This document shows, in pieces, positions 4,993 to 22,414 of a stretch of 64,000 nucleotides of DNA. Position numbers and translations under genes: made by a program. Each line of letters starts with the position of its first letter. The first letter of the stretch is position 1. The notes beneath the pieces were generated by a model that searched no databases, was not told where the DNA came from, and saw nothing but the letters and a program-made list of their open reading frames with translations. This DNA is from a virus: IMG/VR virus record IMGVR_UViG_3300037313_001572, one strand, 5' to 3'.

Positions 4993-7900
4993 TCAGGAAT
5001 GGAATCCGGTGAAAATGTGCTTTGGCTTGCTGGGGGCCTCGGTAACGGATGCCGCGGCGGAGATGCGTTGCAGCATGGCCATCATAACGGCCTGCTTCGC
5101 TGTTGCGCGGTTGTAGACGGTCCGCTGGTGCTGGGACAGACCTTTTACAAAATCCTGCTCGGTTTCTCGGCCGCCGCTGAACGGGCGAAGGAGTGATTTG
5201 CGGAAACCCTGCATCACCTGATCTCGTCCCTCTTGCTTGGCTAGTTCGTCGAATGCCTGGCGCGCCTTGGATTCGTTGCCATCCTCGAGAGCGTATTTAA
5301 GCTTCTGGTATTTCGAGGGAGGAAAGACTTCATCCGGGTTGGCTTTGCCGTGGGCGACTTGATAATCGCGGCCGGCGACGCGCGTTTCCGTGATGTCGCT
5401 ATGGCGTTTGATGCTGAGACCGGTCGCGCCGGCCAGTTCCTCGCCAGGGTTGATGTCGGTGCGCTTGTCGATGATGCCGCGGATGGCGATGGGCACCGGG
5501 GCTTTCAGCATGTCTCCAAGCTGCTCTCCGAAACTGCGCTTCTGCCCGCGCCAGTCGCGGCCGGTCAATCCCTCGATGATGCCGCGGCTGATAATTGGCG
5601 ATATGCGGCCGTAGATGAAACGGCGGGTGTCGGCAAAAAGATCAATCATGTCGCCGGGCACGCTGCGCAGTTTGTATTCGCGCCCCTTGTAGGTAACGCT
5701 AAACGGGTGCCTCCAGTCGTAATCGCCGGTCAGCGCCTTCTCCGCCAACTTGGCGGTGAGGAACATGGTGGCGGCCAGGATGAGCAACGCGCGCCGCTGC
5801 TCGGATCCGTATTTTGTCGTCGCGTCCGCAGCAAACTTGAGGCGCGACTCCAGGAAGTCCGGTGCCAGTAATCCGAGGCGGAGGATGTCTTGGAAGGTCT
5901 GCGACCGGCCCATCATGCGGTAATTCTGCTCGCCGAATGCGTCGTTGGACTGCTGGGCAGTCTTGAACAGGATTTGCTGGCGGGTGATCTTGCCGGCCTT
6001 GATGTCGTCTTCGAAGCGGGCCAGGTTTCGTTTCAAGGCCTCGATCGCCATGGTCATTTTCAAACGCGGGATGTAGTCCTCGAAAAGGAAGGCATTCAAT
6101 TCCTGGTTCATCTTGCCAATGACGGGAAGCTTGTCGATGAGTCCGCCGCCGGCAACGCCCTCCATGAAATCCCTGCGGGCCTCGTGGCTGGCGATCATCA
6201 GACCGGAGTTTATGAGTTCCCGCTGCGTCTGGTCGTTGATGTCGATCTGCACCGGATGAAAAGGATTTATCGTGTGGCCGAGGGCGTGCGTGCCTTCCTG
6301 AACGAAATGGAAAGCGGACATACTGAGGAGGGTCTGCTTCACCGCGAATTGCAGGTTGCGCAGCTGCCGGATGATCGGCGTATTTTGAATGGCCGATTTC
6401 CCAAGTGTCCGCTTCAGGTCGCCGGCAATTTCCGGGTGAATGAGGATATCCCCCTTCACGAAAGTATTGGTTCCTGTGACCGGATCCACGTGCACCCATT
6501 TCCATCCGCGCAGCGCAGGGTTTTCAATGCGGACGTAGTCGGCGGTCTCGTCGCTCTTGCCTCGAGGCGTGACAAGAAGAGCGTCTCCGCCCGAATCCGA
6601 GACCGGCTTGGCGTATCCGCTGATCGTCGCTGCCGGGCGCCCATCGGTGGCGTTGATTTCATGCAGCAGCAGCTTTATGAAAGCGCGGTTCTGCATCACG
6701 CGATTGAAGCTCTCCGCCCAGAGGGCCATCAGCTTGCCAATCTTCTTCGTGAATGGCTTCAGGCCTTTCTGTTCCCCGGCGAAATAGCTCTCGTGGATCC
6801 GCTCGAAAGCGTTTTCAAATCGAGTATTCAAGCGACCTGGTCCTACCACATCGCCAAGGTTTCGGTTGCGCGCGTTCTGCGCCGCGTAGCTGGGATCGTT
6901 TCGGCGGTCCCACATCTGATTGACGTAATCGGTGAGCAGGTCGTCAAGGATTCCGGCTTCCTGGGCTTGCTTGGCCTTGGCCGCATAGAAAGACTTAACC
7001 TCATCGACGAATTTCAAAGGCTCGCCCGAAAGCTTGGCGGCTGCCTCGTACCCAGGAGCCAGTGACGGGCTGCTGGCGCCCGCGCGCTGCTGCAGGGTGC
7101 TCTTGTCGCCACCGGCTTGGATGAAATTGGTAATCGCCTCCTGCTCGGCCGGCGAAAACTTCGAGTTGATGGCGCGCTCCATCTGGCGCACTTCGTAATC
7201 GCTCTTTTGCCGGCCCGTGCTGCGCGGGTCGTCCAGCGCGCCGGTTCCCAGCCATTCACCCTTTGCCTTAAGGTAGTCGGTTACCGGTGCCAGCTGTGTG
7301 AAGAAGGATTTCGCGCTTCCGTAGACGGCCTTTGCGCCAGCGATGACGTCGGACAATTTCTTTTTCGCCTCTTCCTTCTGCCTTCCGATGTCTTCGGCGA
7401 TCGAGGATGCGGAAACACCAGCAGGCTTATTGGTCGAGGCCTTGGCCGCCGCGGCGGCCTTTGCTTCAGGCGTCTCTGCGGGGATGGGCGTGACGTTGTC
7501 CACGTGCGCAGGGATGACGCCCCCCTCATCAAGGGAAACGGTCATCTTCTTGCCCTTGATGCTCGTGATGGTGCCCGGCTTTTTGTAGACATTCACCCGG
7601 TCTCCAACTTTGATCTTCGAAGGATCCGCCGCGGCCAGTTCGGTGCCGGAATTAGGCCGGTATCCCAACGTTGCGCCGAGTCTGTCCATGATACCGACAA
7701 CCTCACCAAGATTGGAAATTTCCCCAACCATCCATTGGCCCTTCTGCTCAAACCCGTTCTTCATCGCGCGATTCACCGCCGGATCCTGCCAGAACTTCCC
7801 ACCGGCCTGCTTGCTGGATGGAACTTCCAGCAGATACTTTCCGCCCTTCAGTGCGATACGCACCTTCCCATCGCTGCTGCTGATTTCTTGCCCATTCCTC

Positions 7901-10900
7901 AAAACGTCCAGCGCGTGACCGACGTCACGGATGTTCTCGCGCTCGACTGCGTTGGGGTCGTAATCGCCTGGCATCAGAATGCCGGTTGCAACAGAGCCAT
8001 CGCTCTTCGTGTAGAGAGTGACCGCTCCACGCCACTGCAATTTGGCGTATGCCGCGATTAGGTTGCCCGTGATGATGACACGTTGCGCCTTGTCCTCTCG
8101 AGACGCGTTATATTGAACGTCGAACTGGTCTGGATCCATGTCGACCAGGCGTTCAGCCATCTGGCTGGCAGGGATCTTCATTTCCCGGCGAAGGGTGTTG
8201 TTGGCAACGGTGAATATCACCTTGCTGGGAGTGACCGGTGCATCCGGGTCAATCTCTACGTTGGTGATGGCGCCAACTTTCTTGCCGTTGGAGGTGTTGA
8301 TGATGACCGGGTTGCCGAGGCGCCCCAATTGCGCCCAGACTTCTGCATATTGGTTGCGCAACCGCTCGCGCTCTCGCTGTTCCTGGGTCGCCCAATCCGA
8401 GATGCTCTTTTCCTTTCGCTTCTCGAGATATTTTTCCACCCATTCGGAGGATTGCTTTTTGTAGTCGGCGATGATCTTGGGCCGGCGAATGGCAATGTCG
8501 TGGGCCTGCTTCATCACCTCGGCGGGCTCCAGCGGAGTCTGTTTCGGCTTCACCTTCACCATTTCCATGTGACTCGGCGCGTCGAAAGAAGATTTCCCAT
8601 TCGGGTCTCCGGGAGTGAATACCTTGCTGCTTACCGTCTCGGCGCCAAGATCGGCCGCCGCGGCGCGCAACTTGTTCTCGCCAATCTGGTCGAGATATTT
8701 GATTTGCGCGGTGTAGCGGTTGAGCACGTCATCCCAGAACATTTCCTGTTCTTCTACGGGCAAAAGCCCGGCATAGCTGGCCACGTTTCGCGCCAGCTTC
8801 CCGTCTTCCTCCATGTCGTCCAGAATATCTTTGATCGGCGCCAGCTTCCCGTCTTTGTCGACGATCTTGGGATATTGCAGGTCTTTCAGGAACTTGGGAT
8901 TGTCCGCCAGATATTTGTAAACGACCGCGTCCCCGTACTCGTTGAAAACATCCACCACATTCGTTCCGTGGGAAACCTCGGAGTCCGTGTTGCTGGTCGT
9001 ATTGGCGTTCAGGCTCGCCATCTTCTTTCCCAGGATGGCGGCCGGCCGCTTCTCCGCCGGCAGAGCCGTTTGAAGCAGCTGGTATCGAGGCAATTCAACC
9101 TGACCGGAGCGAAAGATGCGTCCGAGGGTCTGCGTGAACTCGTTGATGTCCAGATGCGGCTGCGCAATGACCATCATGCGCGGACTGTGATTCTTGAACG
9201 TCTTGTCTGAGTGCGCGCTGATCCCCGTCGATCCGCTCTGGTTGATGACCAATAGGTGCGTGTCGCCGTTGTTGAAGTCTTTCAGCGCGGCCAGTTGCCC
9301 CCTCTTCGTGCTGTCCTCCGGTTCGCGCTCGTAGACCGCGCCGTATTTATCGATACCGGTAGTTCGACCGGTGATTTCGGCCGTCTTGATTCCCTCGTCC
9401 TGCACCCGCTGCCGGATATGGTCGATGGGCGAGAGCGGCATGCCGCCAAGATTCAATTGCTTGAGCTCTGCCTCGGCGTCGAGGAAAGCGTCGTTGGCGA
9501 TGCGGCGGAAGACTTCCGCAGCCACCTCGGGAACGACCACGCCAATTTGTTTCGGTCCTTCATCGGTGCTGATCGTCTCCACCTTAATCAGCTGTGCGAC
9601 GAGGTTGTCGTCACTGTCGTTTTTAAAGCGCGGATCGGGCTTTCTACCAATGTGGGTGTATTCAGCGGTACCGGCGGATTCGCTGCCCCTCGTCTTCACG
9701 CGGCGCAACCCGTTCAATGTTCGCACTAGCAGGCTTCCAAACTCCAGAGTAAGACCTTCCTGGTGCAATCCCTTGATGGGTTGCTCCATGGTATTCTGAA
9801 CGGCCACGATGACCTTGTGCGACTTTACCGTTCCGTCCTTTGTCTGGTGGCCAACCTTAATCGCCTGGATGGCTTGCTGGGCTGCTGCCTCTGCCTTGAT
9901 GGCGAAGAGATATTGAGAAACGAAGTTGTGAATCTGGCTGGCGAAATCGGCCGCCTCCATCTTGATGGTGGAGATATCCATTTTTTTGCCGGCCCTCACC
10001 ATAATGGCGTTCATGGATTTCACCGCGTCCTTTACGCGGTTGCTCATATCCAAGATCGTCCGAAGGCCTCGAGTGTATTCGTTGGCCAACTTTCGATCGC
10101 GCTCCTCGGTGTCGGTATTGATGCGAGTCTCAAACGGAACGCCGTCGTAACTGCGTTCCCGCCGAATGTACTGCCCGTCTTGGGCGAGCATCTGGCTCGC
10201 CACCTGTTGCATTACCACGCCGCCTCGCTTGAAAACTTCCATTAGGTTTTTCGCGCTTCCGGCCGCCTTGCTCAGATTGGTCTTGAAGTAGAGCGGCATG
10301 GAGTCGGGCCGCTTGGCAAAGGTTGCGCTGCTGTAGTAGGCTCGAGCATTGGGATTCTCGAGCATCTTCAGCAGTCGGCCGCCCTGGATGCTTTCGCCGG
10401 CAGCGAGATGCGATTCGTCCAGCAGGAAAAGAACGCGATTGCGAGCCACCAGCGCATTCAGCGCGGCCGTTCGCTTTCCAGGAAGCGGAAGGCGGCCGGC
10501 GCGCATGGCAGCCCGGCGCTCTTCGGCGGTCTCTCCCTTGGCGAAATCCTTGCCCAGCTGGTGGTAGGAAGTGAAAACCGCATCATGCCCATGCGGCATC
10601 TGTCCGTCCTTGGCGATAAGCTCCATGGTCGGATTCATGTCGCGCGTTTTGATTTCCGCATCGGTGATCGGATGCAGGATGTTCAAATTATTGTTCGTGA
10701 ACAGCGGATTGACCGTCCGGCCGATGTTGTGGAAGTCGCCCAGCATGGCCGAGAAAAGAGCCTCGTCCTTGGTGACGAAGATCGGAAGAAACCCATTGCG
10801 TTTGGCGTATTCGATCAATCCGGCCACCACGCGCCCCTTGCCAACACCAGCCATGTCTCCCAGCACCAGCGCGCCCGCGGTCTCGATGTTGTGAATTGCG

Positions 10901-13900
10901 CTGGCGATGGCGTCCAGCTGCTCGGCCGCGAAGTGTTTGCTGAGGTCGTATCCCTTTTTATACCCCATCTTTTCCCGGGCGTATTCGGCCAGGGGTTTTC
11001 CTACCTTGCGCTGAATTTCTTCCAGGGCGTGGCGTTGCGCGTCGGCAATGCCGGCGGGCGTCTCGATGCCGAAAGACGTTCCCTTCGACACGGGAACATA
11101 CGGCTTGTGAAACTGCGGTTTCTCCTCGTCGCTCTGAGCCTCGAGGGTTACCAGTCCCCGCTGCCCGCTCCCGCCGTGTTCAGCTGCTCCATTCCCCAAT
11201 CCGCCCTCTGGTCGCTCGGCAGGCTGTTCCACTCCTTCGCTGGAACTAGTTGCGGCTGGTTCTCGAGAAGCTGCTCCAGACTCATCGTTACCTCCTCCAC
11301 TGTTGGATTCCGCGGGAAATTGAGATGCAGGCCGTTTTTCTCCAGCCCCTCGACGACCGGCCAAAGCTGTTCGGACTCCAGCAAGGCTTTCGCCAAGCTC
11401 GTTGCGATGCTTTCCCTCGTCGTATTGGCCTGCTTGGATTCGGTCGTCATCGGTGCGGTTGAGTTCGGAGCGAAGTTCGCTCCACGTGTTCAAAATACGC
11501 GGCGGTTCCTGGTTTGGCAACTGGATAGGGGACTTGCCCTTTCCGGCGATCGTGATGATGTCCACCGGCCATCCGGCACCCTGTTTTTTGTAGAGGTCGC
11601 CGTTGACGGTGAAATGATCGACTACCTTGTATTGCTCGTAGAGACGCTTGAAGAACTCGCCCCGCTCGCCGCTGGCGTAGTGCTGTCGGCGCGCATTCGG
11701 GTCAATGGCTTGCGAACCTCCGATGATTAGCGAGGCGCGGCCATTGGGCGCAAGGTTCTGCAACGTATTCAGGACGATGGCATGGTCGATTTCACGCGTT
11801 TCGCCGCCGCCGGCCATAGGGAACATCGTCGCTTGGCCATTCTCGCCCTTGAGCACGCCGAATGGAGGGTTTTCGACAATGCGCGTAAACTCGCCGCTGA
11901 ATGGTTTGGTCGCGTCCTGGTCGGAGACGTCGAACCCCTGCGCCTTGAGTGCGGCTCGGCGGGTCGGGTCAATCTCGTTCGCCAGGACGTGCGCGGGATC
12001 CGCCTCGAGAAGCAGCGCGCCGTTGCCGGCGGTTGGCTCGAGTACGTACGTCTTCTCGTTCACTCCAGCGAGATGGCTTGCCAGGAATCCGAGTGGAATC
12101 GGGGTGCTGTATGCCTGGTTGATTTTACTGGCGCTCGTCTTGGCCGTGAGATTCGGCTGCCTGTTGTAGAGCTCAAGAAGGCGGTCGAAGACCTTTCCGG
12201 CATCGTGATTCTGGGCGCGTCCCTCCTCTACGATCATGCGGCCACGAATGACGACACCGTGCTCCGCCGCTTCGTCGATCTGCTTCACAGTAAGACCTGG
12301 ATGCTTCGCGGCGAGCTTTCCGAGGTCGTTTCTGTTGAGCGGGCCGTCTTTCAGTGCATCGGCCACGACGCTCGCGAGTCCCATGGCTGGCTTAATCTTT
12401 TCTGGCTTTTTCGACGGTTGGCTTAATTCGCCAGGCTCGTAGATGCTCTTCCAATCCGGCTCAGACGGCCCATCGGCACCGATGCCCTTCATGAAGAACC
12501 AGAACGATTGCGAGTAACCCTTGGCCTTCTCGCTGATGCGCCCCAGCGTTGTTGCGAGGTCTTCGGGCGATTTGATGCCGAGGCCTTCCAGCTTTTGCGC
12601 CATGGTGATGGCGTCCGCCATGCGCTCGGGCGGCAGCTTGGACGTGTAACCTGCTTCGGGGTTGGCTGCGTATAGATTGAATTGCGGGGTCTGCTCCTTC
12701 CATGCTTCGGGAATCGGCATGGTGTGGATGGGAGCCTTCCCGAAGTCTGGATTTTCAGCACGGTCAAGATGATCGCCCATTTCCATCTTTTCAGGATTGA
12801 GCTTATCAATCTGTCCGCGCTCCACCTTGCCGCCAACCTTCTCAGCCAGCTTGTTCGCAATGCGCGGAAGCATCACGTCGTAAAGGCTCTTCAGTCCTTC
12901 GCCTCCAACTTTGAGATCGGTGTTAGAATACGTCTGGGTTTTACCTTCTTGCGCGACGATTTTCTGTGCCAATTCCTTTCCGACAATGGCTTCTAGTTCA
13001 GACGGTGTTTGATCCGTGACATGAATTATCGGTTCGCTGTCGTTCCCTTTTTTGAACGCTTGGACATGGAATTGATTTTGGATACTCGACTTTGAGGCAA
13101 CGATTTTGGATATGGTATTGCTCAAGTCATACCGCTCCGTCTGCTGCTCGCCGGTAGTCCACCCAATCGCATCCGCGCCCTGGTCGATCGCGTCGCGGAT
13201 AGCCCGCTTCATGCCAATCTCATAGATGCGCTTGCGCAGTGGTTCAGGCATCTTCTGTTGCTCGGCCGCGCTCGGTCCCTGTATTTCCTCGATGAAGTAG
13301 GTTCGGCGCCCTTGGGAGTCCTCGCGGATGTTGCGGCGGATGCGGACAATCGGGTTGGCGATGTCGTTGTATTGGCTGTGCCCGTCGTGCCAGTTCTCCG
13401 ACGAATCGCGCTCGTTTCCACGAACCTGAATTTTAGAAAGCCTGTCCGCTTCCTTCAATTCTTCATCCATCCATCTGCCGCGCTTGGTTGCGGATTCTAC
13501 AAGCGCCTTAAGCTTCGACTGCGCCTCTGCGTGAGTGAGTCCGCTAGATGGCCACGTCACGAACTGCTCGCGGTAGCTGCCAGGTTCGGCGCCGGGGAGT
13601 TGGTATTGCGAGAAGCTGGCAGGCGTCCCGCGCGTAACTATTCCGCCAGCACCATCATCCATCGGCCTGCCATTCGCATCCAATACTCGCTGCTCTCCGC
13701 CCATCATAACATCCTGCACCTTGGCCTGTCGCTCAAGCGAGTAGTCCGTCAGTTCACTCTTGGTAACGCGCGAATCATCGGGCTTGCCGACGAGCGGGCT
13801 CAATGGGTCATCCAAAAGCCCCTGCTGCTTGATCTCGTCGGGTTTCGCGCCCTTTAGGATCGCCGCCCGCGCCTGCCCTACGGTCATCGTCGACTGCGGC

Positions 13901-16900
13901 AAGCTCTGGATGGTCTTGGTCAGCTTCGAAATGAAAACGGGCTTCTCTTCGTCTGGGTTGGCTGCGAACAGGTCGCCGAATCCCTTTTTTAGCTCGTCGG
14001 CCGCCTGGTCGAATTTGTCGCCCTGCTTTTTGCTGGCGATTTTCTTTTCCCGCTTATTGATGCGTTTCAGTTCGGCGTTTTGATGCGCCAAAATCTCATC
14101 ATCCATCTCTGGACGCGAGGGCTCGAGTTCGCGCTTTTTGTAGCGTCCCAGCTTCTCCTCGATGCCGTTTAGTAATTCGCGCACGTCCTTAGACAGAGTC
14201 CCCAGCTTTTCCCGCAGCCACTTCAAAAGGTTGTCCAGGAACTTGTAGCTGGATTCAGTGAGGTTTTCCGGGCCCTCGAGAAGCACTCGCGCCGCCTCGG
14301 CCGCGCGCTGGAATTCGTTCAGCCCTTCCCATTCCGGACCATAGATTTCACCGGTCTTCTCCATCAGTTCCTTGTCTCCGTTGAGACTGAGCAGCCGTTG
14401 CATGTTGGCCGTGCTTTCCTTGGCGTACTTCACGGTGCCAAGGTGGATAATTTCGTGCGCTACGGCTCGCTTCACCCACTTGGATGCCTCTTCCTTTCCG
14501 AGTTTGGAGACCGCCGCGGCAAATTTCTCTTTGTCGATGACGATACGTCCGCTGTTGGAGTCGGTGATGATTCCGCTTTTTGCCGGCGTCTCTCGGAAAA
14601 TGAATTCGTCCGGGTGCCCAAGGGCATCCAGTTCGGATTTGTGCAGCTTCAGCGCGGCATTGGCCAGTGCTACCGCGTAGTTTTTCTGTCCCTCGGTCGG
14701 TTTTTCCTCTGCCTCTGCCTTGGCCTTTTCAATCGCGGCATTTCGCTCTTTCTCCGTGGAGATTTGTTTCTCCTTCTGGAATTTATCGCGAGTCTCCTGC
14801 AGCTTCGCCTTGGCCTTTTCGGGTGTCAGTTCGGCATCGGACAGTGAGAAGTTTCCGCCGGTCTTTTCGTCTTTGAAAGCGTGCAACCCTTGGTCGCCTT
14901 TACCTTGGTATGTCGCTCCGATTTCCTTGGCGATCGACTCTGGATTGACGTTAGATGAATTTATGGCACTATTCGGCTCATGGGACGCCCTTCCACTGGT
15001 GGACACATCCGCCGATTTCCTCGCCATAATACTTCCTATCGCCTTATAAGCGTCGTCGTTGACGGTGTCAGGCGACAACGGTTTGAACACCGAATTGTTA
15101 TGGAGAAAGCTCTTGGAAGAAAGCTCTCCTCCAAGGAGGTCGTTCACCATCGCGACGGGAATGGACTTAACAACTCCATCGGAAATCTTGAGATCATTTC
15201 CCAGCGGGAGCATGTTCAAATTCACCGGTTCGGACGACTTCGATGGCCGCTGGATGAGGCCATTGAGCTTCGCAAGCAGGGATTTACCATCGCTGCGATT
15301 GCTGCCCGATACAAAGTGACCTACGCCAGCATCCAGCGCGCTTTTAAGCGCAGAGGACTCCTCGGGCGTTACGTGAAGACCGTTCGCATTCGAGACGCTG
15401 CCACCGGAAGGATTCTCGGCAGGAAGACGCTCCCCGCGTGATCTCTGCACGCGAGTCGACATTGCCCACTGCTTGAACATCTCAAGCGAAGGAAATTCCG
15501 CGATGCTATGAATGCCGGGAACCTTCGAGTAATTCGATGCGTAAAGCTCGTGCGCTTCCTTTTTTGATCCTACGCCGATTACGGCCTTCGCCTCGTCGTA
15601 TGTTCCATCCGGTTTATTTTGGTTCACGACAAACACGGGCCCCTTGTAGTCCAAGGGCGTGCCGGGCTTGATGAAGGTATCGATGTGGTCGCCGTCGTTT
15701 CCTTCCGTTCCGCGGATGTAGCCGTAGTGCGCCGTGAGCGGCGGCCACTCCGGGCGCCGACTGCTGCCGGCCGGGTTCTCGATCGAAATATCCATACCGC
15801 CAAGGCGCAGATGCCCCTTGGCGTAGTTTCCGGCCTTCTTTTGCCCCTCGGTGGGGTGCTCGAGTTCGTTCTTGGTCGAGGTTGCGGCTTCGTGCGCCGC
15901 CTGGTCTACGGTTTCTTTCGGCGCCGTGGCGGATGCGCCAGTCGCTCCAGTGGATTGTTGCTGACGTGCTCCGGAAGGCTGCTGGGATCCGGCGTTTCCT
16001 TGGCCCACTTCTCCGCCTTGTCCTTCATTTCCTGCCCCAGTGCTCCCGAGAACGCTGCTCTCATTTGCGCTTTGCTCTTGAACGGCATTACCTGGTCCTT
16101 TCGTTGGTTGCTGGCCTCGAGGTGCCGCCCCCTGTGGCTCCGTAGTGACATTCGTGGGCGGCACCTCTTCTTGGTTTTCTACGGACGGCGATTTACCGAT
16201 GGCCCGAACGATATCGTCATTGTTCAGTCCCAGTTTGGTAAGTTTGTCGGTCGCCTCGGCGTGCGACATCGTTCCGGCCATGACAGCCTTTTGAATTGCC
16301 TCCTTGCCTTCCACTTCTGGCGATGGCGGCTGCTGTTGCGTTCCCGTAGTTTCCGCGGCCGGCCCGCCAACGGCAGGCGTAGTCGGCTCGGGCTGACCTC
16401 CGCCGCCGGACTCTCCCGGATTGGTCTCGATCTTGGCCGTGGTCAACGGAGTTCCTTCGCGCTTCCCAAATTCCGGGATGAATGCCTGCTTGGCGGTGAT
16501 GCCCTTGATGGTCGACGAATCAAATTGGCCGGTGGCCTTCATCTGCTTCGCCTGCTCGCCGATGGCATTGAATACCGCCTGTTCGGTCTTCGAAAGAGGC
16601 GCGGAATTGGTATTGGCCGCCTGGTTGCTGTCCAGACCCATCTTATTGAAGGCCTCGGCTACCTGCTGCGGAGTCAGTTCCGCATCCAATGGTACGCCCA
16701 CCATGTTGCGCATCTGGGCGCGCGTGAACATGCTGGCGATGTCCTGGCTGGAGTAGTCCTTGAACTTGATGTTGTGCCCGGCGGTGATGATGCCGAGTGC
16801 GATGTTCGTCGCCATGCTCTTCAGTGTCGGACTCTGCACCTGGTCATGCTGGATACCCAGCTGATCGGCCAAAGCATTGCTGGCGTAGTCGAACAGCGGG

Positions 16901-18606
16901 CGAATCGCTCCCTCGAATACTGCGCCGCCGGCCGCGCCGCCGGCCGCGATCTTGCCAACCAGCTTCGCCGCCGCGACCGTTCCGCCCACTTGTTTTGCGA
17001 TCTGGGCGGCCTTGTAGACGTTGCTCACCGCTTCCGGCGCGTTGGCGCTCATGCCTACCAGTTCACCGGCCGCATCAAACATCGGATGCAGCTGCGCAGA
17101 CGAGTTGAGGCTCTTGATGGTGTCCGAGTAGTCGGCCAGCTTGTCCAAGGCCTTACGCGCGGCAAAGGCGGCAATGGTGCCCGTGGTCAGGCCGCCAAGT
17201 GCGCCGCCAATGAGTTCCGGTATGCCGGTCTCGCCTGCTCCTGGAATCGCAGCGCCGGCCGCCGCTCCAAGTTTCGCTCCCGGTATGGATCCAGCCCAGA
17301 AAGCCGCTCCAATTCCGCCGCCATGCAGCAAGGCTTTCAACTCCTGCGCGCCGCCGGCGGCCTGCTGCAGGGCTTGATACTTGTCCTGCGCTGCCTGGAA
17401 GTCGGGCAAATGTTGCTGCGCCCACTCCGGAGACACCAGATGATCATTTACGGCCTGACGAAGACCATCCGCCATGTTCTGCGGCTGGAAGTGAACCCCG
17501 CTGGCATCATCGTAGGTGTACGGCTTGTTGCCCGCCCGTGCATCGGTCAAAGCCTTGTTCAGCTGGTCAATTTGCTCCGGAGCAAGCGCCGGACTCGAAC
17601 CGGCCGCACTGGGATTATGAGCCCCAAGCGTATCCTGATCTTGCCCCGGAGGAGGTAGCGCCCCAAAATCTTGCGCGCGACCTACGGCCACGTCCGCGCG
17701 CTGGTGTAAAAGGTTAGACTGCTGGGCGGTCTGCTGGTCGATATGCTGCGACCGCTCGGCAATCAAATCCTTCAGGCTGCTCATCTGGTCGAGCAGCTGA
17801 TGAGCCTTTGCCTTCTGCTGGTCGTAGCCATTGCGCAGAATAGTGGCTTGCGGAGAGAAATCGCCGGATCCAAACCAGCCCGACTTTTCATTCGCCTCTG
17901 GTGCCGCGTAGAGGTCGTTAAAATGGCTGTCGATCGCTTTATGGGCGTCGTCGAGCGAGGTGTCGTCCGGCTGGTTCTGGAGGGACGGCACCATGCCGAA
18001 AAGCCCCTTCTGCATCGCCTTGTATTGAGTCTGGTCGCGATGCAGCTGGCGCTCGTCCACGGTCAGCTGTCGACCGAGGGCCTCGGAGGCATCCTTTACG
18101 GCCTTCTGCTTTTCCTGTTCGAGCGCGGCCGCGGTGGCCTGCTCGTCCTGGCCGAGATATTTCCACCCCAATCCCTTTCGAATTCGGTATTTAGCGCCCG
18201 TGTCTTGATCGATCGTAGTTGGGACATCCTTGAAGGCATCCTCCACGGCCGGCGCGCCGCCATACTCGTTGGGAGTTACCTGCACCGGGTTACCCTGGCT
18301 GTCGTATCCGACATTCGCCGCCTTATTGTAGTGCGAGACCGGTGTTCCGGTCGCGTCTGTTACCGGCTGGACGTTCCCCTTGTCGTCGGTGTAGATCGCA
18401 TTCCCCTGCGCGGCAAGGTCGCGGCCCTTCATCCGGTTTACCGTCTGCTGCGCTTGCTGCTGAACGCGTTGCGTGGATACCTGGCGTTCCTCTGTCTGGA
18501 ACGGGGTTTCGCCGGGAAGCGGAGGATTGGACGCGTAATCGCGCTCCACATCGCCTACTTCACCCGGCACATTGAGCAGCGCGTCGAGTGGGTTGTTCGA
18601 GTCCAT
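4993..18606 (-). CDS. Giant polyvalent virion/ejection protein, DarB-like (4537 aa): Gly/Ala hydrophobic N-region, inorganic-pyrophosphatase-like domain, zincin, N6-adenine MTase, Strawberry-notch SF2 helicase, KOW-like, helical C-terminus
   Basis: GNYAKGH..ISIENPAGS..HYGYIRGTEGNDGDHID (~15465-15910); HEIIH (~14445); VLEPTAGNG (~12030) and NPPF (11860-11871); GDMAGVGKGR (~10845), DESH (~10413), SGSTGISAH and TLGRIFRSGQ (~9100-9240). Confidence 0.85.
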   Translation of the reverse strand: MDSNNPLDALLNVPGEVGDVERDYASNPPLPGETPFQTEERQVSTQRVQQQAQQTVNRMKGRDLAAQGNAIYTDDKGNVQPVTDATGTPVSHYNKAANVGYDSQGNPVQVTPNEYGGAPAVEDAFKDVPTTIDQDTGAKYRIRKGLGWKYLGQDEQATAAALEQEKQKAVKDASEALGRQLTVDERQLHRDQTQYKAMQKGLFGMVPSLQNQPDDTSLDDAHKAIDSHFNDLYAAPEANEKSGWFGSGDFSPQATILRNGYDQQKAKAHQLLDQMSSLKDLIAERSQHIDQQTAQQSNLLHQRADVAVGRAQDFGALPPPGQDQDTLGAHNPSAAGSSPALAPEQIDQLNKALTDARAGNKPYTYDDASGVHFQPQNMADGLRQAVNDHLVSPEWAQQHLPDFQAAQDKYQALQQAAGGAQELKALLHGGGIGAAFWAGSIPGAKLGAAAGAAIPGAGETGIPELIGGALGGLTTGTIAAFAARKALDKLADYSDTIKSLNSSAQLHPMFDAAGELVGMSANAPEAVSNVYKAAQIAKQVGGTVAAAKLVGKIAAGGAAGGAVFEGAIRPLFDYASNALADQLGIQHDQVQSPTLKSMATNIALGIITAGHNIKFKDYSSQDIASMFTRAQMRNMVGVPLDAELTPQQVAEAFNKMGLDSNQAANTNSAPLSKTEQAVFNAIGEQAKQMKATGQFDSSTIKGITAKQAFIPEFGKREGTPLTTAKIETNPGESGGGGQPEPTTPAVGGPAAETTGTQQQPPSPEVEGKEAIQKAVMAGTMSHAEATDKLTKLGLNNDDIVRAIGKSPSVENQEEVPPTNVTTEPQGAAPRGQQPTKGPGNAVQEQSANESSVLGSTGAGNEGQGGEVGQGNAGSQQPSGARQQQSTGATGASATAPKETVDQAAHEAATSTKNELEHPTEGQKKAGNYAKGHLRLGGMDISIENPAGSSRRPEWPPLTAHYGYIRGTEGNDGDHIDTFIKPGTPLDYKGPVFVVNQNKPDGTYDEAKAVIGVGSKKEAHELYASNYSKVPGIHSIAEFPSLEMFKQWAMSTRVQRSRGERLPAENPSGGSVSNANGLHVTPEESSALKSALDAGVGHFVSGSNRSDGKSLLAKLNGLIQRPSKSSEPVNLNMLPLGNDLKISDGVVKSIPVAMVNDLLGGELSSKSFLHNNSVFKPLSPDTVNDDAYKAIGSIMARKSADVSTSGRASHEPNSAINSSNVNPESIAKEIGATYQGKGDQGLHAFKDEKTGGNFSLSDAELTPEKAKAKLQETRDKFQKEKQISTEKERNAAIEKAKAEAEEKPTEGQKNYAVALANAALKLHKSELDALGHPDEFIFRETPAKSGIITDSNSGRIVIDKEKFAAAVSKLGKEEASKWVKRAVAHEIIHLGTVKYAKESTANMQRLLSLNGDKELMEKTGEIYGPEWEGLNEFQRAAEAARVLLEGPENLTESSYKFLDNLLKWLREKLGTLSKDVRELLNGIEEKLGRYKKRELEPSRPEMDDEILAHQNAELKRINKREKKIASKKQGDKFDQAADELKKGFGDLFAANPDEEKPVFISKLTKTIQSLPQSTMTVGQARAAILKGAKPDEIKQQGLLDDPLSPLVGKPDDSRVTKSELTDYSLERQAKVQDVMMGGEQRVLDANGRPMDDGAGGIVTRGTPASFSQYQLPGAEPGSYREQFVTWPSSGLTHAEAQSKLKALVESATKRGRWMDEELKEADRLSKIQVRGNERDSSENWHDGHSQYNDIANPIVRIRRNIREDSQGRRTYFIEEIQGPSAAEQQKMPEPLRKRIYEIGMKRAIRDAIDQGADAIGWTTGEQQTERYDLSNTISKIVASKSSIQNQFHVQAFKKGNDSEPIIHVTDQTPSELEAIVGKELAQKIVAQEGKTQTYSNTDLKVGGEGLKSLYDVMLPRIANKLAEKVGGKVERGQIDKLNPEKMEMGDHLDRAENPDFGKAPIHTMPIPEAWKEQTPQFNLYAANPEAGYTSKLPPERMADAITMAQKLEGLGIKSPEDLATTLGRISEKAKGYSQSFWFFMKGIGADGPSEPDWKSIYEPGELSQPSKKPEKIKPAMGLASVVADALKDGPLNRNDLGKLAAKHPGLTVKQIDEAAEHGVVIRGRMIVEEGRAQNHDAGKVFDRLLELYNRQPNLTAKTSASKINQAYSTPIPLGFLASHLAGVNEKTYVLEPTAGNGALLLEADPAHVLANEIDPTRRAALKAQGFDVSDQDATKPFSGEFTRIVENPPFGVLKGENGQATMFPMAGGGETREIDHAIVLNTLQNLAPNGRASLIIGGSQAIDPNARRQHYASGERGEFFKRLYEQYKVVDHFTVNGDLYKKQGAGWPVDIITIAGKGKSPIQLPNQEPPRILNTWSELRSELNRTDDDRIQAGQYDEGKHRNELGESLAGVRTALAGRRGAGEKRPASQFPAESNSGGGNDESGAASREPAATSSSEGVEQPAERPEGGLGNGAAEHGGSGQRGLVTLEAQSDEEKPQFHKPYVPVSKGTSFGIETPAGIADAQRHALEEIQRKVGKPLAEYAREKMGYKKGYDLSKHFAAEQLDAIASAIHNIETAGALVLGDMAGVGKGRVVAGLIEYAKRNGFLPIFVTKDEALFSAMLGDFHNIGRTVNPLFTNNNLNILHPITDAEIKTRDMNPTMELIAKDGQMPHGHDAVFTSYHQLGKDFAKGETAEERRAAMRAGRLPLPGKRTAALNALVARNRVLFLLDESHLAAGESIQGGRLLKMLENPNARAYYSSATFAKRPDSMPLYFKTNLSKAAGSAKNLMEVFKRGGVVMQQVASQMLAQDGQYIRRERSYDGVPFETRINTDTEERDRKLANEYTRGLRTILDMSNRVKDAVKSMNAIMVRAGKKMDISTIKMEAADFASQIHNFVSQYLFAIKAEAAAQQAIQAIKVGHQTKDGTVKSHKVIVAVQNTMEQPIKGLHQEGLTLEFGSLLVRTLNGLRRVKTRGSESAGTAEYTHIGRKPDPRFKNDSDDNLVAQLIKVETISTDEGPKQIGVVVPEVAAEVFRRIANDAFLDAEAELKQLNLGGMPLSPIDHIRQRVQDEGIKTAEITGRTTGIDKYGAVYEREPEDSTKRGQLAALKDFNNGDTHLLVINQSGSTGISAHSDKTFKNHSPRMMVIAQPHLDINEFTQTLGRIFRSGQVELPRYQLLQTALPAEKRPAAILGKKMASLNANTTSNTDSEVSHGTNVVDVFNEYGDAVVYKYLADNPKFLKDLQYPKIVDKDGKLAPIKDILDDMEEDGKLARNVASYAGLLPVEEQEMFWDDVLNRYTAQIKYLDQIGENKLRAAAADLGAETVSSKVFTPGDPNGKSSFDAPSHMEMVKVKPKQTPLEPAEVMKQAHDIAIRRPKIIADYKKQSSEWVEKYLEKRKEKSISDWATQEQRERERLRNQYAEVWAQLGRLGNPVIINTSNGKKVGAITNVEIDPDAPVTPSKVIFTVANNTLRREMKIPASQMAERLVDMDPDQFDVQYNASREDKAQRVIITGNLIAAYAKLQWRGAVTLYTKSDGSVATGILMPGDYDPNAVERENIRDVGHALDVLRNGQEISSSDGKVRIALKGGKYLLEVPSSKQAGGKFWQDPAVNRAMKNGFEQKGQWMVGEISNLGEVVGIMDRLGATLGYRPNSGTELAAADPSKIKVGDRVNVYKKPGTITSIKGKKMTVSLDEGGVIPAHVDNVTPIPAETPEAKAAAAAKASTNKPAGVSASSIAEDIGRQKEEAKKKLSDVIAGAKAVYGSAKSFFTQLAPVTDYLKAKGEWLGTGALDDPRSTGRQKSDYEVRQMERAINSKFSPAEQEAITNFIQAGGDKSTLQQRAGASSPSLAPGYEAAAKLSGEPLKFVDEVKSFYAAKAKQAQEAGILDDLLTDYVNQMWDRRNDPSYAAQNARNRNLGDVVGPGRLNTRFENAFERIHESYFAGEQKGLKPFTKKIGKLMALWAESFNRVMQNRAFIKLLLHEINATDGRPAATISGYAKPVSDSGGDALLVTPRGKSDETADYVRIENPALRGWKWVHVDPVTGTNTFVKGDILIHPEIAGDLKRTLGKSAIQNTPIIRQLRNLQFAVKQTLLSMSAFHFVQEGTHALGHTINPFHPVQIDINDQTQRELINSGLMIASHEARRDFMEGVAGGGLIDKLPVIGKMNQELNAFLFEDYIPRLKMTMAIEALKRNLARFEDDIKAGKITRQQILFKTAQQSNDAFGEQNYRMMGRSQTFQDILRLGLLAPDFLESRLKFAADATTKYGSEQRRALLILAATMFLTAKLAEKALTGDYDWRHPFSVTYKGREYKLRSVPGDMIDLFADTRRFIYGRISPIISRGIIEGLTGRDWRGQKRSFGEQLGDMLKAPVPIAIRGIIDKRTDINPGEELAGATGLSIKRHSDITETRVAGRDYQVAHGKANPDEVFPPSKYQKLKYALEDGNESKARQAFDELAKQEGRDQVMQGFRKSLLRPFSGGRETEQDFVKGLSQHQRTVYNRATAKQAVMMAMLQRISAAASVTEAPSKPKHIFTGFHS
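11148..11450 (-). CDS. Candidate nested gene in the +1 frame of the giant ORF (100 aa, or 45 aa from ATG 11285)
   Basis: Protein-like acidic helical sequence while the host frame here reads as a G/R/A/E/S-rich shadow; ATG at 11285 is preceded by GGAGGAGGT. Confidence 0.45.
   Translation of the reverse strand: MTTESKQANTTRESIATSLAKALLESEQLWPVVEGLEKNGLHLNFPRNPTVEEVTMSLEQLLENQPQLVPAKEWNSLPSDQRADWGMEQLNTAGAGSGDW
14980..15441 (+). CDS. HNH homing endonuclease (HNH_3-like + C-terminal HTH), nested antisense in the giant ORF
   Basis: EHRIVMEKALGRKLSSKEVVHHRDGNGLNNSIGNL..H motif; C-terminal helix-turn-helix-like LRKQGFTIAAIAARYKVTYASI. Confidence 0.85.
   Translation: MGRPSTGGHIRRFPRHNTSYRLISVVVDGVRRQRFEHRIVMEKALGRKLSSKEVVHHRDGNGLNNSIGNLEIISQREHVQIHRFGRLRWPLDEAIELRKQGFTIAAIAARYKVTYASIQRAFKRRGLLGRYVKTVRIRDAATGRILGRKTLPA
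15906..16088 (-). CDS. Nested 60-aa 'MPFKSKAQ' small phage protein in the +1 frame of the giant ORF
   Basis: MPFKSKAQMRAAF..AEKWAKETP..SLPEHV matches a recurring small phage protein pattern (from recall); AAGGA 7-8 nt upstream of ATG 16088. Confidence 0.6.
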   Translation of the reverse strand: MPFKSKAQMRAAFSGALGQEMKDKAEKWAKETPDPSSLPEHVSNNPLERLAHPPRRRKKP

Positions 18607-18609
18607 TGA

Positions 18610-20133
18610 TTAAACGCCGTCGTTGACGGAGGTGTCCGTGAGCCGCTTTTTGAATTCCGCATCCTGCGGACTGGTGGCGAATCGATCCAATGGGTTCTCC
18701 TGCATCGAGGTAGTTCCCAAGGGAGTCGGCGCCGCGGTGTTCTCGCCAAACAAAATCGTGCCCGGCGATCCATACTCTGGATTCCCCTTGTCCATCTCTT
18801 CCTTCTGCTGCGGTAGACTTTGCGGGGCCGGCTGCGCATTGATCTGCTGCGCGCGCTGCGCGTCGGAGGCATCTTTCTGCTTCGCCTGAAATGCGGCATC
18901 CTGCGCGGCCACATCCGACATTTGTTTCGCCTTTGCCTGCTCTGCTGCTTTCAGCTGATCGGCTCCGGTAATGGGCGGCTCCTGCGCGGCATTCGAGGAT
19001 CCCATCAACTCCGCCGGGTTGATTCCGGCGAAGGGAGATTGAGGAGCGGTCGCATTCGCGGCGGCGGCCGGCGCGGCCGGCATGTCGGACAACGAATCGA
19101 AGAAGGATCCGTGCTGCGGGCTGCTGCTGGCTCCTGTTCCGGCCGATGGGCTTGCGGTTTGGACGTCTGCCGGATGCACAAAACGAACGCCATTCTCGCC
19201 GCCTGGGGTGCCGTATTTCTCCGCGATCTTCGCGCCGCCCATGGTGTCGTAACGAGGATCGTATTCGATTGCCTCGGTCGTGCGACGATCGCCGCCGGGG
19301 GTGCGCGCCGTGCCTTCGCCGGTCTGCAACGTCTTTTGACCGAGCACGCGCTCTCCGCGGTAGTCGAAAGCACCAGCCCCAGTGTCCGTGACTTCGCCGG
19401 TACTCGGCGCCGGGTTTTCCCGAAGCCACTGTGCGCGCTGTTGCGGCGTCCACGTCTGCCATTGTCCGCCGGTACGCGCGTGCATCACCTGATCGAAGGT
19501 AGGAGACACTCCCACCTCTCGGGGCCCGCTGTGGGTTTGCACCGTGGAGACCAGGCCGGCGCCTGTCTGGGTGACGTGCGGATTCATCCCATTGGGAAAA
19601 GGGATGGCATCGACCGCTTTTTCCAGCGGGGTTCGCTCACTTCCAGGAGTGTTCACGGCCGGGGAGCGCAATGGCGTCTGACCCGGAGACGTTCCCGGAA
19701 CCGGGATACCCGTTACCGCTCCTGCCATGGCGTTGCCGGCGTTCTGCACGGCTGCCGATACCTTTCCGGCGGAATTGGTGTTAGGCGTCGCGCTGGTCGC
19801 CTGTGACGAAATTCGGCGTTGTTGCGCCTGGGCAATTCCGTCCATCCGAATGGTGGCATCGGCGATATCCTTGGCGGACATTTCGCCGTGAACTACGGGA
19901 AGAGCGGACTCCATGGCGCCGTTTTTGATGAGATTGGCCCGCTGATTTCGCAAGGCGGCCACCAATTCGGCGCGATGCTGCTCCTGCTGCATCTGGTGTG
20001 CCGCGGCCTTCTCCGTGGCCAGATTGCTCATCACAGTTCCCGCGCTGGGCGGGCCGTAGGGTGCGTAGGGGCGGCTCATGTCTCCCGTATTTGGGAAACC
20101 TTCGTCAAAGTCAAGTGAACGCCGCCAGTCCAA
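18610..20133 (-). CDS. Putative internal virion / ejection protein (507 aa, A/P/Q-rich)
   Basis: Lies between terL and the giant protein; low-complexity composition typical of podovirus core proteins. Confidence 0.55.
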   Translation of the reverse strand: MDWRRSLDFDEGFPNTGDMSRPYAPYGPPSAGTVMSNLATEKAAAHQMQQEQHRAELVAALRNQRANLIKNGAMESALPVVHGEMSAKDIADATIRMDGIAQAQQRRISSQATSATPNTNSAGKVSAAVQNAGNAMAGAVTGIPVPGTSPGQTPLRSPAVNTPGSERTPLEKAVDAIPFPNGMNPHVTQTGAGLVSTVQTHSGPREVGVSPTFDQVMHARTGGQWQTWTPQQRAQWLRENPAPSTGEVTDTGAGAFDYRGERVLGQKTLQTGEGTARTPGGDRRTTEAIEYDPRYDTMGGAKIAEKYGTPGGENGVRFVHPADVQTASPSAGTGASSSPQHGSFFDSLSDMPAAPAAAANATAPQSPFAGINPAELMGSSNAAQEPPITGADQLKAAEQAKAKQMSDVAAQDAAFQAKQKDASDAQRAQQINAQPAPQSLPQQKEEMDKGNPEYGSPGTILFGENTAAPTPLGTTSMQENPLDRFATSPQDAEFKKRLTDTSVNDGV

Positions 20134-22414
20134 GCCCGCTGCGTAAAGAAATGTCGCCTGCGTCGGTATCGGAATGCAGAGAAGTGAAGACCGCCGGCGG
20201 CATGTACATGGTGGCCCGCTCGATATTTGCCAGTCCGATGCCGATACCCATCACCCAATCGTCATGGCACCCGGGCTTCGCTTCTGCGCGGCCGCGGTCG
20301 GTCACGATGAAGGTCTTCAGTTCCACGATTGCCGGCATAAATTCGCAGTCCAAGGCGTCCTCGGAGACGTAATTCGTGATCGCGTTCACCACGATTGGAC
20401 GCGTGTCTTTGTTCGTCTCCCATCCGATGACATTGATTCTCTCGTTGGGGTGGACATTGTCCATCTTCTCGCGCTGGTAGATGCGGCACCCGGCGCGGCG
20501 AAGCTCGTTGAGCATTCCAAGCCCGTTGCCGGTCTCGGGAATAATCTCGCACCCCCCATACCAGTCCAAAAGCATGCGCATGCGCTCCGCATAAAGTGCG
20601 TCGTCCCACCGGCATCCGGTCGGAACATCGATCGCCGCCACGAGGCGCGGCTTTCGCCACCGGCCGCGATCGTCGAAGTAACCTTGCCGCAGGATTCCGC
20701 CAGCGTGCGCGTCTGGGAACAGGCTGCCCTCGCTCTGCTCGCCCTGGCACGGATCCAGGAACGCGATGTAGGAGCAGCCGGCGGCTGGCCGCTCTTTCAC
20801 CCAGAGCCAATTATCCGAGTCTCCTCGAGGCATGAAATTGATGCCGCCGCGCTCGCCCTTCTCGAGTACACCGGTTTCTGCGATTCCGTAGGAAACGCGC
20901 GCCACCTTTTCCCACCGTGAGAGCACGTCGAGATTGAATTTTGGCCGGCCCGACGCAAGGAAGCAGCTTTCGGCGTCTTCCGGGAAATCCTGGTCGAACA
21001 TACGCACATCGTTGGCGCAGTCCTTTTTGATCTTCATGCGGCGCCAGGCGATTTGCTCTGGTGACCAGTTGTAAAGGTCGATACCGCGGCGCTCGCGGTG
21101 GTCAAGATCGGAAGAAAAGTAGTCGGCGTTGTCCGCCGTGCGCGCCAGCTTGTGCTCCGGGAAGTAGAACCAGGCTGCGAAGACCTTGATCCAGCCATTT
21201 CCAACGACACCCTTCTTTCGCTGCTCAAGCGTCACGGCGTCCTGCCACGTCTCGTAGAACCAGCCTGATGCGCCTTCAGCCGTGCTCTCCGCCGCGCAAA
21301 GGGTATTGGGTTTGTCCGGGAGAGAGTTGAGAACGGCGGTGATGACCTTCTTGTCCCGCCCGCTGTTCTTCATGTAGCGGGCCGCCTCGGTCAACCACAC
21401 AATTTGCCGGGTGCCAGAGATACCGGCTTTCGGATCGAGCGCGGTGTCGTGCTCCACGACTGCCTCGCTTCCATCGTCCATCTGGAAAACAATCTTTTCC
21501 GTGTTCGATTTGATGATGGCCGTGTCCCACTGGAAATTATCGTGCTTGGGGATGTCCTGGAACATTTGCCAAACCTTTTCCGTCCGCTTGGCCACGTCCC
21601 CCATCATAATCATGTCGAACTTGAACCGCCGGATGTGGTGATAACATACCGCGGCGCAGTAAGTAGAGCATCCAACCTGGCGCGGCTTCAGGATGATGAG
21701 CCGAATCGGGATGCTATTATCTAGGCAATACTGGTAGGCATCGGAGATTGAGAATTGCAGGATGTTAGGAATCGGAGTTCTCCACACGTGCTCCTTATCC
21801 TCTATCTCCGTGAATCCTGCGAAGTGCACCAGCGGGCTGTTGCGCACCATCTCGATGCCGATTTCCGCAGTCATGTCCGGAATTTTCGGCGCCTCCACCT
21901 CCGGTATATTCATCGAGGGAAATCGCCGGCCGCCTTTGAACTCGTGCCAGTTCTTTCGCATCCATTCATCCAGTCCTTTGCCTGGCCGGTATTGGCAATT
22001 CGTCAAGAGCTCGAATTCATCGGCCGCTTCATCAAAGGAGGCGGCAGTGATTCGATACAGCACCTTGGCAAGAAAGAGAATTGCCAGCGTTGGGGCCCGG
22101 CTTTCTCCCTGGTTGCAGTGGATGAGGATTTTCCGGCCTTCCTCCCACGCGTGCCGCATGAATTCTATGAAGGAGTCGAACATTTCACGCTGAAAGAGCG
22201 GAGTGCTCGGATCGATCATGTTCAAAAACAGGTCGTTCCCCTCGCGATAGGCGAGATAATTTGAGGAGCTCGAGTCGGGCCGGCTGCCACACTTGGAGGC
22301 ATGGCACGGATGCTTGCAAGCATGCACCACGCTCCACTCTGGGTTACCCTCTACGGCTTTGCAGTCCTCGAGCGAGCCGACGTAGAGGTTATCGATTACC
22401 CGGCAACGGGGCAT
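20111..22414 (-). CDS. terL: Terminase large subunit with N-terminal dual-specificity-phosphatase-like domain
   Basis: IILKPRQVGCST (Walker A), VWLTEAA (Walker B), ESTAEG coupling motif, FLDPCQG and HDDWVMG nuclease motifs; N-terminal ~160 aa has NLYVGS..D and ILIHCNQGESRA (CX5R). Confidence 0.9.
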   Translation of the reverse strand: MPRCRVIDNLYVGSLEDCKAVEGNPEWSVVHACKHPCHASKCGSRPDSSSSNYLAYREGNDLFLNMIDPSTPLFQREMFDSFIEFMRHAWEEGRKILIHCNQGESRAPTLAILFLAKVLYRITAASFDEAADEFELLTNCQYRPGKGLDEWMRKNWHEFKGGRRFPSMNIPEVEAPKIPDMTAEIGIEMVRNSPLVHFAGFTEIEDKEHVWRTPIPNILQFSISDAYQYCLDNSIPIRLIILKPRQVGCSTYCAAVCYHHIRRFKFDMIMMGDVAKRTEKVWQMFQDIPKHDNFQWDTAIIKSNTEKIVFQMDDGSEAVVEHDTALDPKAGISGTRQIVWLTEAARYMKNSGRDKKVITAVLNSLPDKPNTLCAAESTAEGASGWFYETWQDAVTLEQRKKGVVGNGWIKVFAAWFYFPEHKLARTADNADYFSSDLDHRERRGIDLYNWSPEQIAWRRMKIKKDCANDVRMFDQDFPEDAESCFLASGRPKFNLDVLSRWEKVARVSYGIAETGVLEKGERGGINFMPRGDSDNWLWVKERPAAGCSYIAFLDPCQGEQSEGSLFPDAHAGGILRQGYFDDRGRWRKPRLVAAIDVPTGCRWDDALYAERMRMLLDWYGGCEIIPETGNGLGMLNELRRAGCRIYQREKMDNVHPNERINVIGWETNKDTRPIVVNAITNYVSEDALDCEFMPAIVELKTFIVTDRGRAEAKPGCHDDWVMGIGIGLANIERATMYMPPAVFTSLHSDTDAGDISLRSGLGLAAFT

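Follow-up and report, generated by a model that had tools for sequence, protein, structure and literature searches.

Can one short stretch of a phage genome serve two proteins at once and, if so, which of the two is the older? The question is raised by 183 bases in the IMG/VR virus record IMGVR_UViG_3300037313_001572, a stretch of 64,000 nucleotides that is referred to here, at its full length, as the window. These bases lie within a giant gene on the minus strand and are read, in the frame of that gene, as part of a linker between domains; in the +1 frame they read as a complete small gene that begins with the sequence MPFKSKAQ. The evidence assembled below makes it very probable that the stretch codes for two proteins, the linker of the giant protein and the product of a complete, separate +1 gene with an internal start. 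The features of the overlap are as follows.

15906..16088, minus strand: the nested MPFKSKAQ gene, 60 codons and a TAG, in the +1 frame of the giant gene, recognized from the sequence and its homologues.
16088-16086, minus strand: the ATG start of the nested gene, read from the sequence.
15908-15906, minus strand: the TAG stop of the nested gene, read from the sequence.
16096..16100, minus strand: AAGGA, a Shine-Dalgarno-like (SD-like) sequence 7 nucleotides 5' of the nested ATG and within the host coding sequence.
15904..16089, minus strand: the dual-coded stretch as the host reads it, a low-complexity linker rich in G, Q, S, N, A and E, host residues 840-901.

The codon phase of the nested open reading frame (ORF) is set one base downstream of that of the giant ORF. 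In the +1 frame the stretch reads MPFKSKAQMRAAF...WAKETP...LPEHV, and in the giant-gene frame it reads, from residue 840, NAVQEQSANE.. and later EVGQGN. The predicted product of the nested gene is a basic protein of ~6.8 kDa. Its N-terminus, MPFKSKAQ, is invariant; further on come the motif W-A-x-E-T-P...L-P and a tail rich in Lys and Arg. The nested stop overlaps the host codons V900 and D901, which is where the homology of the adjoining InPase module starts: in BLASTP, residue 900 (window 15909; VDQAAHEAAT...) is the first at which this module resembles those of phages POI1126 and PBC5 and of another viral locus, L008. The arrangement is that of an embedded gene pair, with a small ORF lying wholly inside a larger one on the same strand and in another frame, and having an ATG and an SD-like site of its own. 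An earlier, sequence-only reading of this DNA had placed a +1-frame ORF in the NAVQEQSANE.. stretch, with AAGGA upstream and a stop where the PPase-like domain begins; the coordinates were confirmed in the sequence, and so was the position of the stop. A further in-frame ATG lies upstream at 16151 (window 16089-16151, minus strand) and would lengthen the nested ORF to 81 codons. This extension was rejected for want of support among the homologues, all of which begin at MPFKSK.

The nested ORF belongs to a large family of small proteins. A search of 5.8 billion proteins with the 60-residue peptide returned 25 close small homologues of 47-84 residues, with E-values down to 2e-14 and identities up to 83%; they are free-standing in gene maps, so that the statement of the sequence-only reading, that this peptide occurs as a stand-alone small phage gene, was well founded. 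When 1.84 billion cluster representatives were searched with a profile, the family grew to 1,342 members at E <=1e-3, with 235 at <=1e-10. Most of these representatives are 47-130 residues long and carry the domain at residues 1-50; the nested members have 42-66 residues. The window peptide starts at the same methionine as the family (Met1 of MPFKSK) and keeps all of its invariant or nearly invariant residues, namely P2, F3, S5, Q8, F13, W28, A29, T32, L38 and P39. An AlphaFold2 model based on an 85-row alignment has a predicted local distance difference test score of 84 overall and >90 for residues 1-40, and residues 6-14 and 19-31 form helices, after which come an extended segment, T-P...L-P, and the basic tail. 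Larger, polyvalent-type proteins also have the domain in frame. It stands before DUF5661 and InPase in P0103, before InPase in P0171, and before NUDIX and an AAA domain in P0101, and in P0160 it follows InPase and is internal (residues 407-459), still beginning with Met.

How much of this could have arisen by chance was assessed by recoding. When the host linker was recoded synonymously, the +1 frame stayed open for 60 codons in 80% of cases, and the openness of the frame was for this reason dropped as evidence. The sequence encoded in that frame is another matter. Scored with a hidden Markov model (HMM) that was built without the window sequence, from the stand-alone homologues only, the window peptide reaches 99.4 bits (E 3e-29), compared with a mean of 8.4, a standard deviation of 7.7 and a maximum of 47.4 bits for the 4,980 recodings that gave any score with the same HMM. 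It is because of this distance, and not because the frame is open, that the nested sequence can be placed beyond chance. Recoding the peptide synonymously instead leaves the host frame open in merely 7.4% of cases, yet the host frame is open in every nested locus; the codons in use thus satisfy both frames, and both are maintained. The third frame was open in 0/5,000 recodings, since the ATG followed by A in a Q-M-(R/K) stretch makes a TGA in that frame, and this is why the nesting is always at +1. The constant +1 relation, which might have been taken as a sign of a single origin, was dropped as such a sign because the other frame always meets this TGA.

The same arrangement recurs in other genomes. 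An intact ATG-to-stop gene nested at +1 is carried by 35 other loci, 33 of them viral or phage and two of them contigs of bacterial metagenome-assembled genomes (MAGs). The viral and phage loci come from a sample of 82 (80 from a scan of IMG/VR and two phage records), so that 33/82 are nested; the host ORFs of the nested loci run from 270 to >2,600 codons, many of them cut by the ends of the locus. The two bacterial cases were found by scanning prokaryote contigs: a Syntrophomonadaceae MAG contig (L092), with a host ORF of >1,775 codons and a nested gene of the window's subfamily, and a Flavobacteriaceae MAG contig (L099) with a 399-codon host. Cultured phages have it as well, as tblastn with the peptide matched 68 Flavobacterium elemo phage records and the Manatee Spring podovirus. 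In both of the matched genomes examined, a 42-43-codon MPFKSK ORF lies at +1 in a giant coding sequence (CDS) annotated as a "structural protein", and the frame of this CDS reads (D/N)AVQKQ...GLQEVGQGN across it. With peptides of two other subfamilies, tblastn found little in cultured phages, and 25 kb of the window had no megablast match among phage records. Nesting spans phages of at least three bacterial phyla, Bacteroidota, Firmicutes and Proteobacteria, the last assigned by host-gene similarity. The nested gene itself is systematically missed by gene callers, since none of six nested peptides, including that of the window, is present in a collection of 15 billion proteins (0/6) and the elemo GenBank records list the giant CDS alone.

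The hosts are of two types. The first is a giant polyvalent or structural protein, in which the cassette, that is, the dual-coded stretch with its nested gene, sits at residues ~470-1230. The second is an acidic protein of ~400 residues whose gene comes directly after that of an 800-residue portal protein (phrog_6547, E 1e-145). Here the cassette lies at residues 42-60, and hosts of this type are found in L039 (3868-5064), L031, L035, L052, L056, L061, L062, L071, L074, L080, L083-L085 and L099. The ~400-residue host has no Pfam or PHROG match, and it may be a scaffold-like protein.

Two variants of the family were seen along the way. One has two cysteines, in the pattern M-K-A-C-(Y/W)...W-(D/N)-C-K-K-W, and occurs in this sample only in the nested state, in ~18 unique sequences from giant and ~400-residue hosts alike (L001, L002, L031, L035, L037-L041 and others). 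The other is the subfamily Q-Q-(G/K)-Y-M-F...K-T-A-K-(K/R)-W (L048, L049, L055, L059, L063, L067, L082), in which a host-like frame is open too, in ORFs of ~100-190 codons; nesting on a smaller scale, or partial overlap, may occur in these loci too.

The start signals of the nested gene agree with the lineage concerned. Among the loci of SD-using lineages, 12/13 have an SD-like core of >=4 nucleotides at positions -18 to -3 of the nested ATG, against a background of 16% among the remaining internal ATGs of these host ORFs; L008, for instance, has AAGGAGG, and L014, L016, L030 and L033 have AAGGAG. The low-GC Flavobacterium-type loci have no such core (0/18, against a background of 21%) and show A-rich leaders instead. 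Initiation in Bacteroidota is SD-independent, and the A-rich, SD-less leaders of the Flavobacterium-type loci fit this mode of initiation.

The pattern of substitutions tells which of the two frames is under the stronger constraint. Over 32 unique nested sequences, the mean column entropies at codon positions 1/2/3 of the peptide are 0.68/0.62/1.09, and pairwise comparison of L008, L092 and the window gives 16-19 differences at third positions versus 5-11 at positions 1 and 2, as it does between stand-alone genes. The host frame was compared in pairwise codon alignments of whole host ORFs in three groups, counting differences per site at host positions 1/2/3.

L014 group (9 loci, giant hosts): inside the overlap 0.21/0.08/0.10, outside 0.20/0.15/0.40.
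L037 group (4 loci, giant hosts): inside the overlap 0.18/0.03/0.04, outside 0.08/0.05/0.17.
L031 group (13 loci, ~400-residue hosts): inside the overlap 0.29/0.12/0.11, outside 0.20/0.13/0.45.

The variability of host third positions is thus about four-fold lower inside the overlap (0.04-0.11 versus 0.17-0.45 outside), and change inside the overlap concentrates on host position 1, which is position 3 of the peptide. The pattern shows purifying selection on the nested frame, with the host frame kept open alongside it. A telling case is serine 5, where the codon TCG in place of AGC is silent in the peptide and turns EQ into VE in the host. Because this switch leaves the peptide as it was and alters the host, the host motif NA(V/I)Q(E/K)Q...EVGQGN is a shadow of the small gene. 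The sequence-only reading had anticipated both points. The +1 frame is indeed conserved, being intact in the 33 viral or phage loci and the two MAG contigs with substitutions gathered at peptide third positions; and the NA(I/V)QEQ linkers that it suspected elsewhere of being shadows are the host-frame reading of MPFKSK, in which the serine codon decides between EQ and VE.

Taken together, the family homology, the conservation of the +1 frame and the selection pattern uphold the proposal of a true overlapping gene, with separate translation inferred from the sequence. In the mechanism that we favor, the host frame would supply a disordered inter-domain linker of a giant virion-type polyvalent protein, and ribosomes would start at the internal SD-like site and ATG on the late mRNA of the giant gene, so that the small protein would be made separately. 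Of the two, the small gene is probably the older, and the more tightly constrained, since it has free-standing relatives and shows the stronger constraint, and the host linker would be mostly its by-product. Several observations have to be set against this account. At its start in the window the nested gene shows no sigma-70-like promoter of its own, which is the reason why initiation is placed on the giant mRNA, nor any unusual RNA structure. The loci were collected through a peptide search, and a sample drawn in this way misses any host linker whose nested frame has decayed completely. Finally, in L001 and L038 an insertion, described below, has left upstream a truncated duplicate that reads MPFKSKKLMK and then stops.

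The main rival to a separate gene is a +1 frameshift product, in which ribosomes would slip from the giant frame and make a truncated N-terminal protein ending in the MPFKSKAQ domain. The domain can evidently work in a larger chain, as it occurs in frame in polyvalent proteins and internally in P0160, and the selection signal in the +1 frame fits a frameshift equally well. A frameshift needs neither an ATG nor a start signal, however, and no nested locus has lost the ATG, which is preceded by a signal appropriate to the lineage. The stand-alone relatives, moreover, begin at exactly the methionine of the nested ATG, and in the ~400-residue hosts a mere 42-60 residues precede it. The sequence 5' of the ATG differs by lineage and shows no common slippery motif by eye, no formal search having been made. 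On this evidence the frameshift is disfavored, and we consider it improbable.

A second alternative keeps the overlap and denies it a product. The +1 ORF would be the silent fossil of a stand-alone gene swallowed by the giant one, or the by-product of a linker motif that is functional in the host, such as a site of processing or recognition. The host-frame motif is recognizably conserved across loci, as such a linker would be, and the frame opens easily at this amino-acid composition, as the 80% of open recodings attest. Selection on the host frame would nevertheless leave its third positions the most variable, and inside the overlap it is the first positions that vary most and the third that vary least. 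The serine switch points the same way, being silent in the peptide and not in the host, and the host's choice of codons yields the family peptide far beyond what the recodings give. Moreover, 35/35 of the other nested copies are intact over deep divergence and three host phyla. There is accordingly little chance that either form of this explanation is right.

The remaining possibility, a chance ORF of the kind of which many, 40-150 codons long, lie in alternative frames over this giant GC-rich gene, or else an assembly frameshift that joined two genes, was judged refuted and can be set aside almost entirely, given the homology to stand-alone genes (E ~1e-14 to 1e-29), the recoding scores, the same conserved nesting in independent assemblies and cultured phage genomes, and a host frame that is continuous with its homologous modules in one frame.

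With the separate nested gene as the preferred reading, the next question is what kind of protein it is nested in. Two further features of the window describe the host.

4993..18606, minus strand: the host gene, a phage-type polyvalent protein of 4,537 residues with InPase and a Strawberry-notch-type helicase (Pfam).
15466..15846, minus strand: the InPase domain, PF18823, host residues 921-1047 (Pfam match).

The helicase part of the giant protein consists of AAA_34 (PF13872, residues 2562-2829) and Helicase_C_4 (PF13871, residues 3074-3304), both by Pfam. The InPase stretch has ~74% DNA identity to genes annotated as DarB-like antirestriction genes in phages POI1126 and PBC5, and in the window the giant gene comes after terS-like and terminase-like ORFs. 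Several unrelated domains (InPase, AAA_34 and Helicase_C_4) are thus joined in one very long phage polypeptide. With its InPase and helicase domains, its DarB-like similarity and its terS- and terminase-like neighbors, the giant gene therefore encodes a polyvalent protein of the phage type as PMC5512222 uses the term. An ORF of 767 residues that lies upstream of it (window 20111-22414, minus strand) has a terminase-like PHROG match in its C-terminal part; its N-terminal part has a dual-specificity-phosphatase-like match to PF00782 that is below threshold (29.3 versus a cut-off of 33.5 bits).

The cassette does not seem to be tied to the domains around it. In the window it stands before InPase, and in L008 it stands after it (cassette at host residues 713-776, InPase at 554-684); POI1126 and PBC5 have the InPase module and lack the cassette. 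These positions indicate that the cassette was gained, lost or moved independently of the neighboring domains. The association with InPase is itself not general, L008 being the only one among the viral loci with InPase within 4 kb. A further clue comes from the giant gene of the elemo phages, where L001 (2604-3025), and L038 likewise, carries an insertion of 396 nucleotides (132 residues) that L037 and L041 lack. A perfect direct repeat of 26 nucleotides, spanning the start of the nested gene, borders this insertion on both sides, as if a domain had been brought in through recombination at the dual-coded stretch. The MPFKSKAQ gene could then be more than a passenger. As a tentative idea, prompted by the cassette on either side of InPase, its absence from homologous modules and the repeat-flanked elemo insertion, it might be a mobile dual-coding cassette that is at once a hidden, separately translated gene, a ready-made inter-domain linker and a recombination joint for domain shuffling in giant injected proteins. 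DNA frozen by two frames would then be where phages add domains to these proteins and remove them.

As to what the small protein does, the gene maps offer a hint. Among the free-standing homologues, one is directly upstream of a portal gene, one is between TerL and portal, one is flanked by Cpn60 and by a small ORF and TerL, and others are in a cluster of small genes upstream of the terminase. The nested copy in the window, which comes after the terS- and terminase-like ORFs, has a comparable head- or packaging-module context. In view of this synteny with terminase and portal, of the nested residence in virion-type or post-portal genes and of the basic tail, it is conceivable, though we hold it doubtful, that the small protein is an accessory of the head or packaging module, bound for example to packaged DNA, portal, terminase or packaged cargo proteins. 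The databases give such a function no help. Neither the peptide nor any of 85 family members has a Pfam match, the PHROG links are weak and lead to families without known function (phrog_14981, phrog_1375), and in the PDB there is no relative by sequence profile and nothing below E 4 by Foldseek. Foldseek against BFVD returned uncharacterized small phage proteins, and searches of the Atlas returned viral hypothetical proteins and one weak lead, DUF3008 (PF11450). DUF3008 resembles the family in consisting of small viral proteins and is the nearest named Atlas cluster (0.88 by language-model features, TM-score 0.55 over 52 residues); however, no member of the A1 or A2 alignments reaches its Pfam model even at E 0.1-1. 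Membership in DUF3008 was rejected since the Pfam threshold is not reached, and the lead points at most to a possible distant relationship.

The case is of interest for several reasons. Well-supported same-strand nested genes are few in phages with double-stranded DNA, and one that extends over several phyla amounts to a broad natural data set on frame sharing. It exposes a blind spot of annotation, the nested gene being absent from the protein collection and from the elemo GenBank records. It also accounts for the recurrent linker motif NA(V/I)Q(E/K)Q of large phage proteins, where a functional site might wrongly have been suspected. Since a cultured pair exists, the elemo phages and Flavobacterium sp. 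BAL314, a direct test is possible.

The closest known parallel is Rz1 of phage lambda, a complete small gene that lies inside Rz on the same strand and in the +1 frame and is separately translated from its own start; its product is a lipoprotein that works with Rz, the product of the host gene. The MPFKSKAQ gene is likewise an embedded same-strand +1 gene with its own start. It differs in coming from an unrelated and widespread family that is also free-standing, whereas Rz1 is the partner of Rz. In addition, what is overlapped of the host is here no more than a disordered linker, the host genes are of several kinds (for giant polyvalent proteins or for ~400-residue proteins after the portal), and translation is deduced from sequence.

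The host, in turn, is a typical member of the polyvalent phage proteins (Iyer et al. 2017, PMC5512222) by its InPase and Sno-type helicase, and the MPFKSKAQ domain is also found in frame in such proteins. This domain matched none of the Pfam models, among them those LPD families of the 2017 paper that Pfam contains. The words 'overlapping', 'linker' and 'frameshift' do not occur in the text of that paper. The MPFKSKAQ motif was found in no paper, and the literature on overlapping or embedded genes together with polyvalent or virion proteins yielded nothing relevant and no description of the nested gene.

The most instructive comparison is perhaps with overprinting, of which the genes of phiX174 (B in A, E in D, and K) and those treated in work on viral overprinting (PMC8227390) are the classical examples. 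What these have in common with the present case is dual coding under asymmetric constraint. In classical overprinting, however, the inner gene is the newcomer. The usual picture would be reversed in the present case: age and strong constraint appear to lie with the short gene, and it is the linker of the giant protein, read in the host frame, that appears to be derived and weakly constrained.

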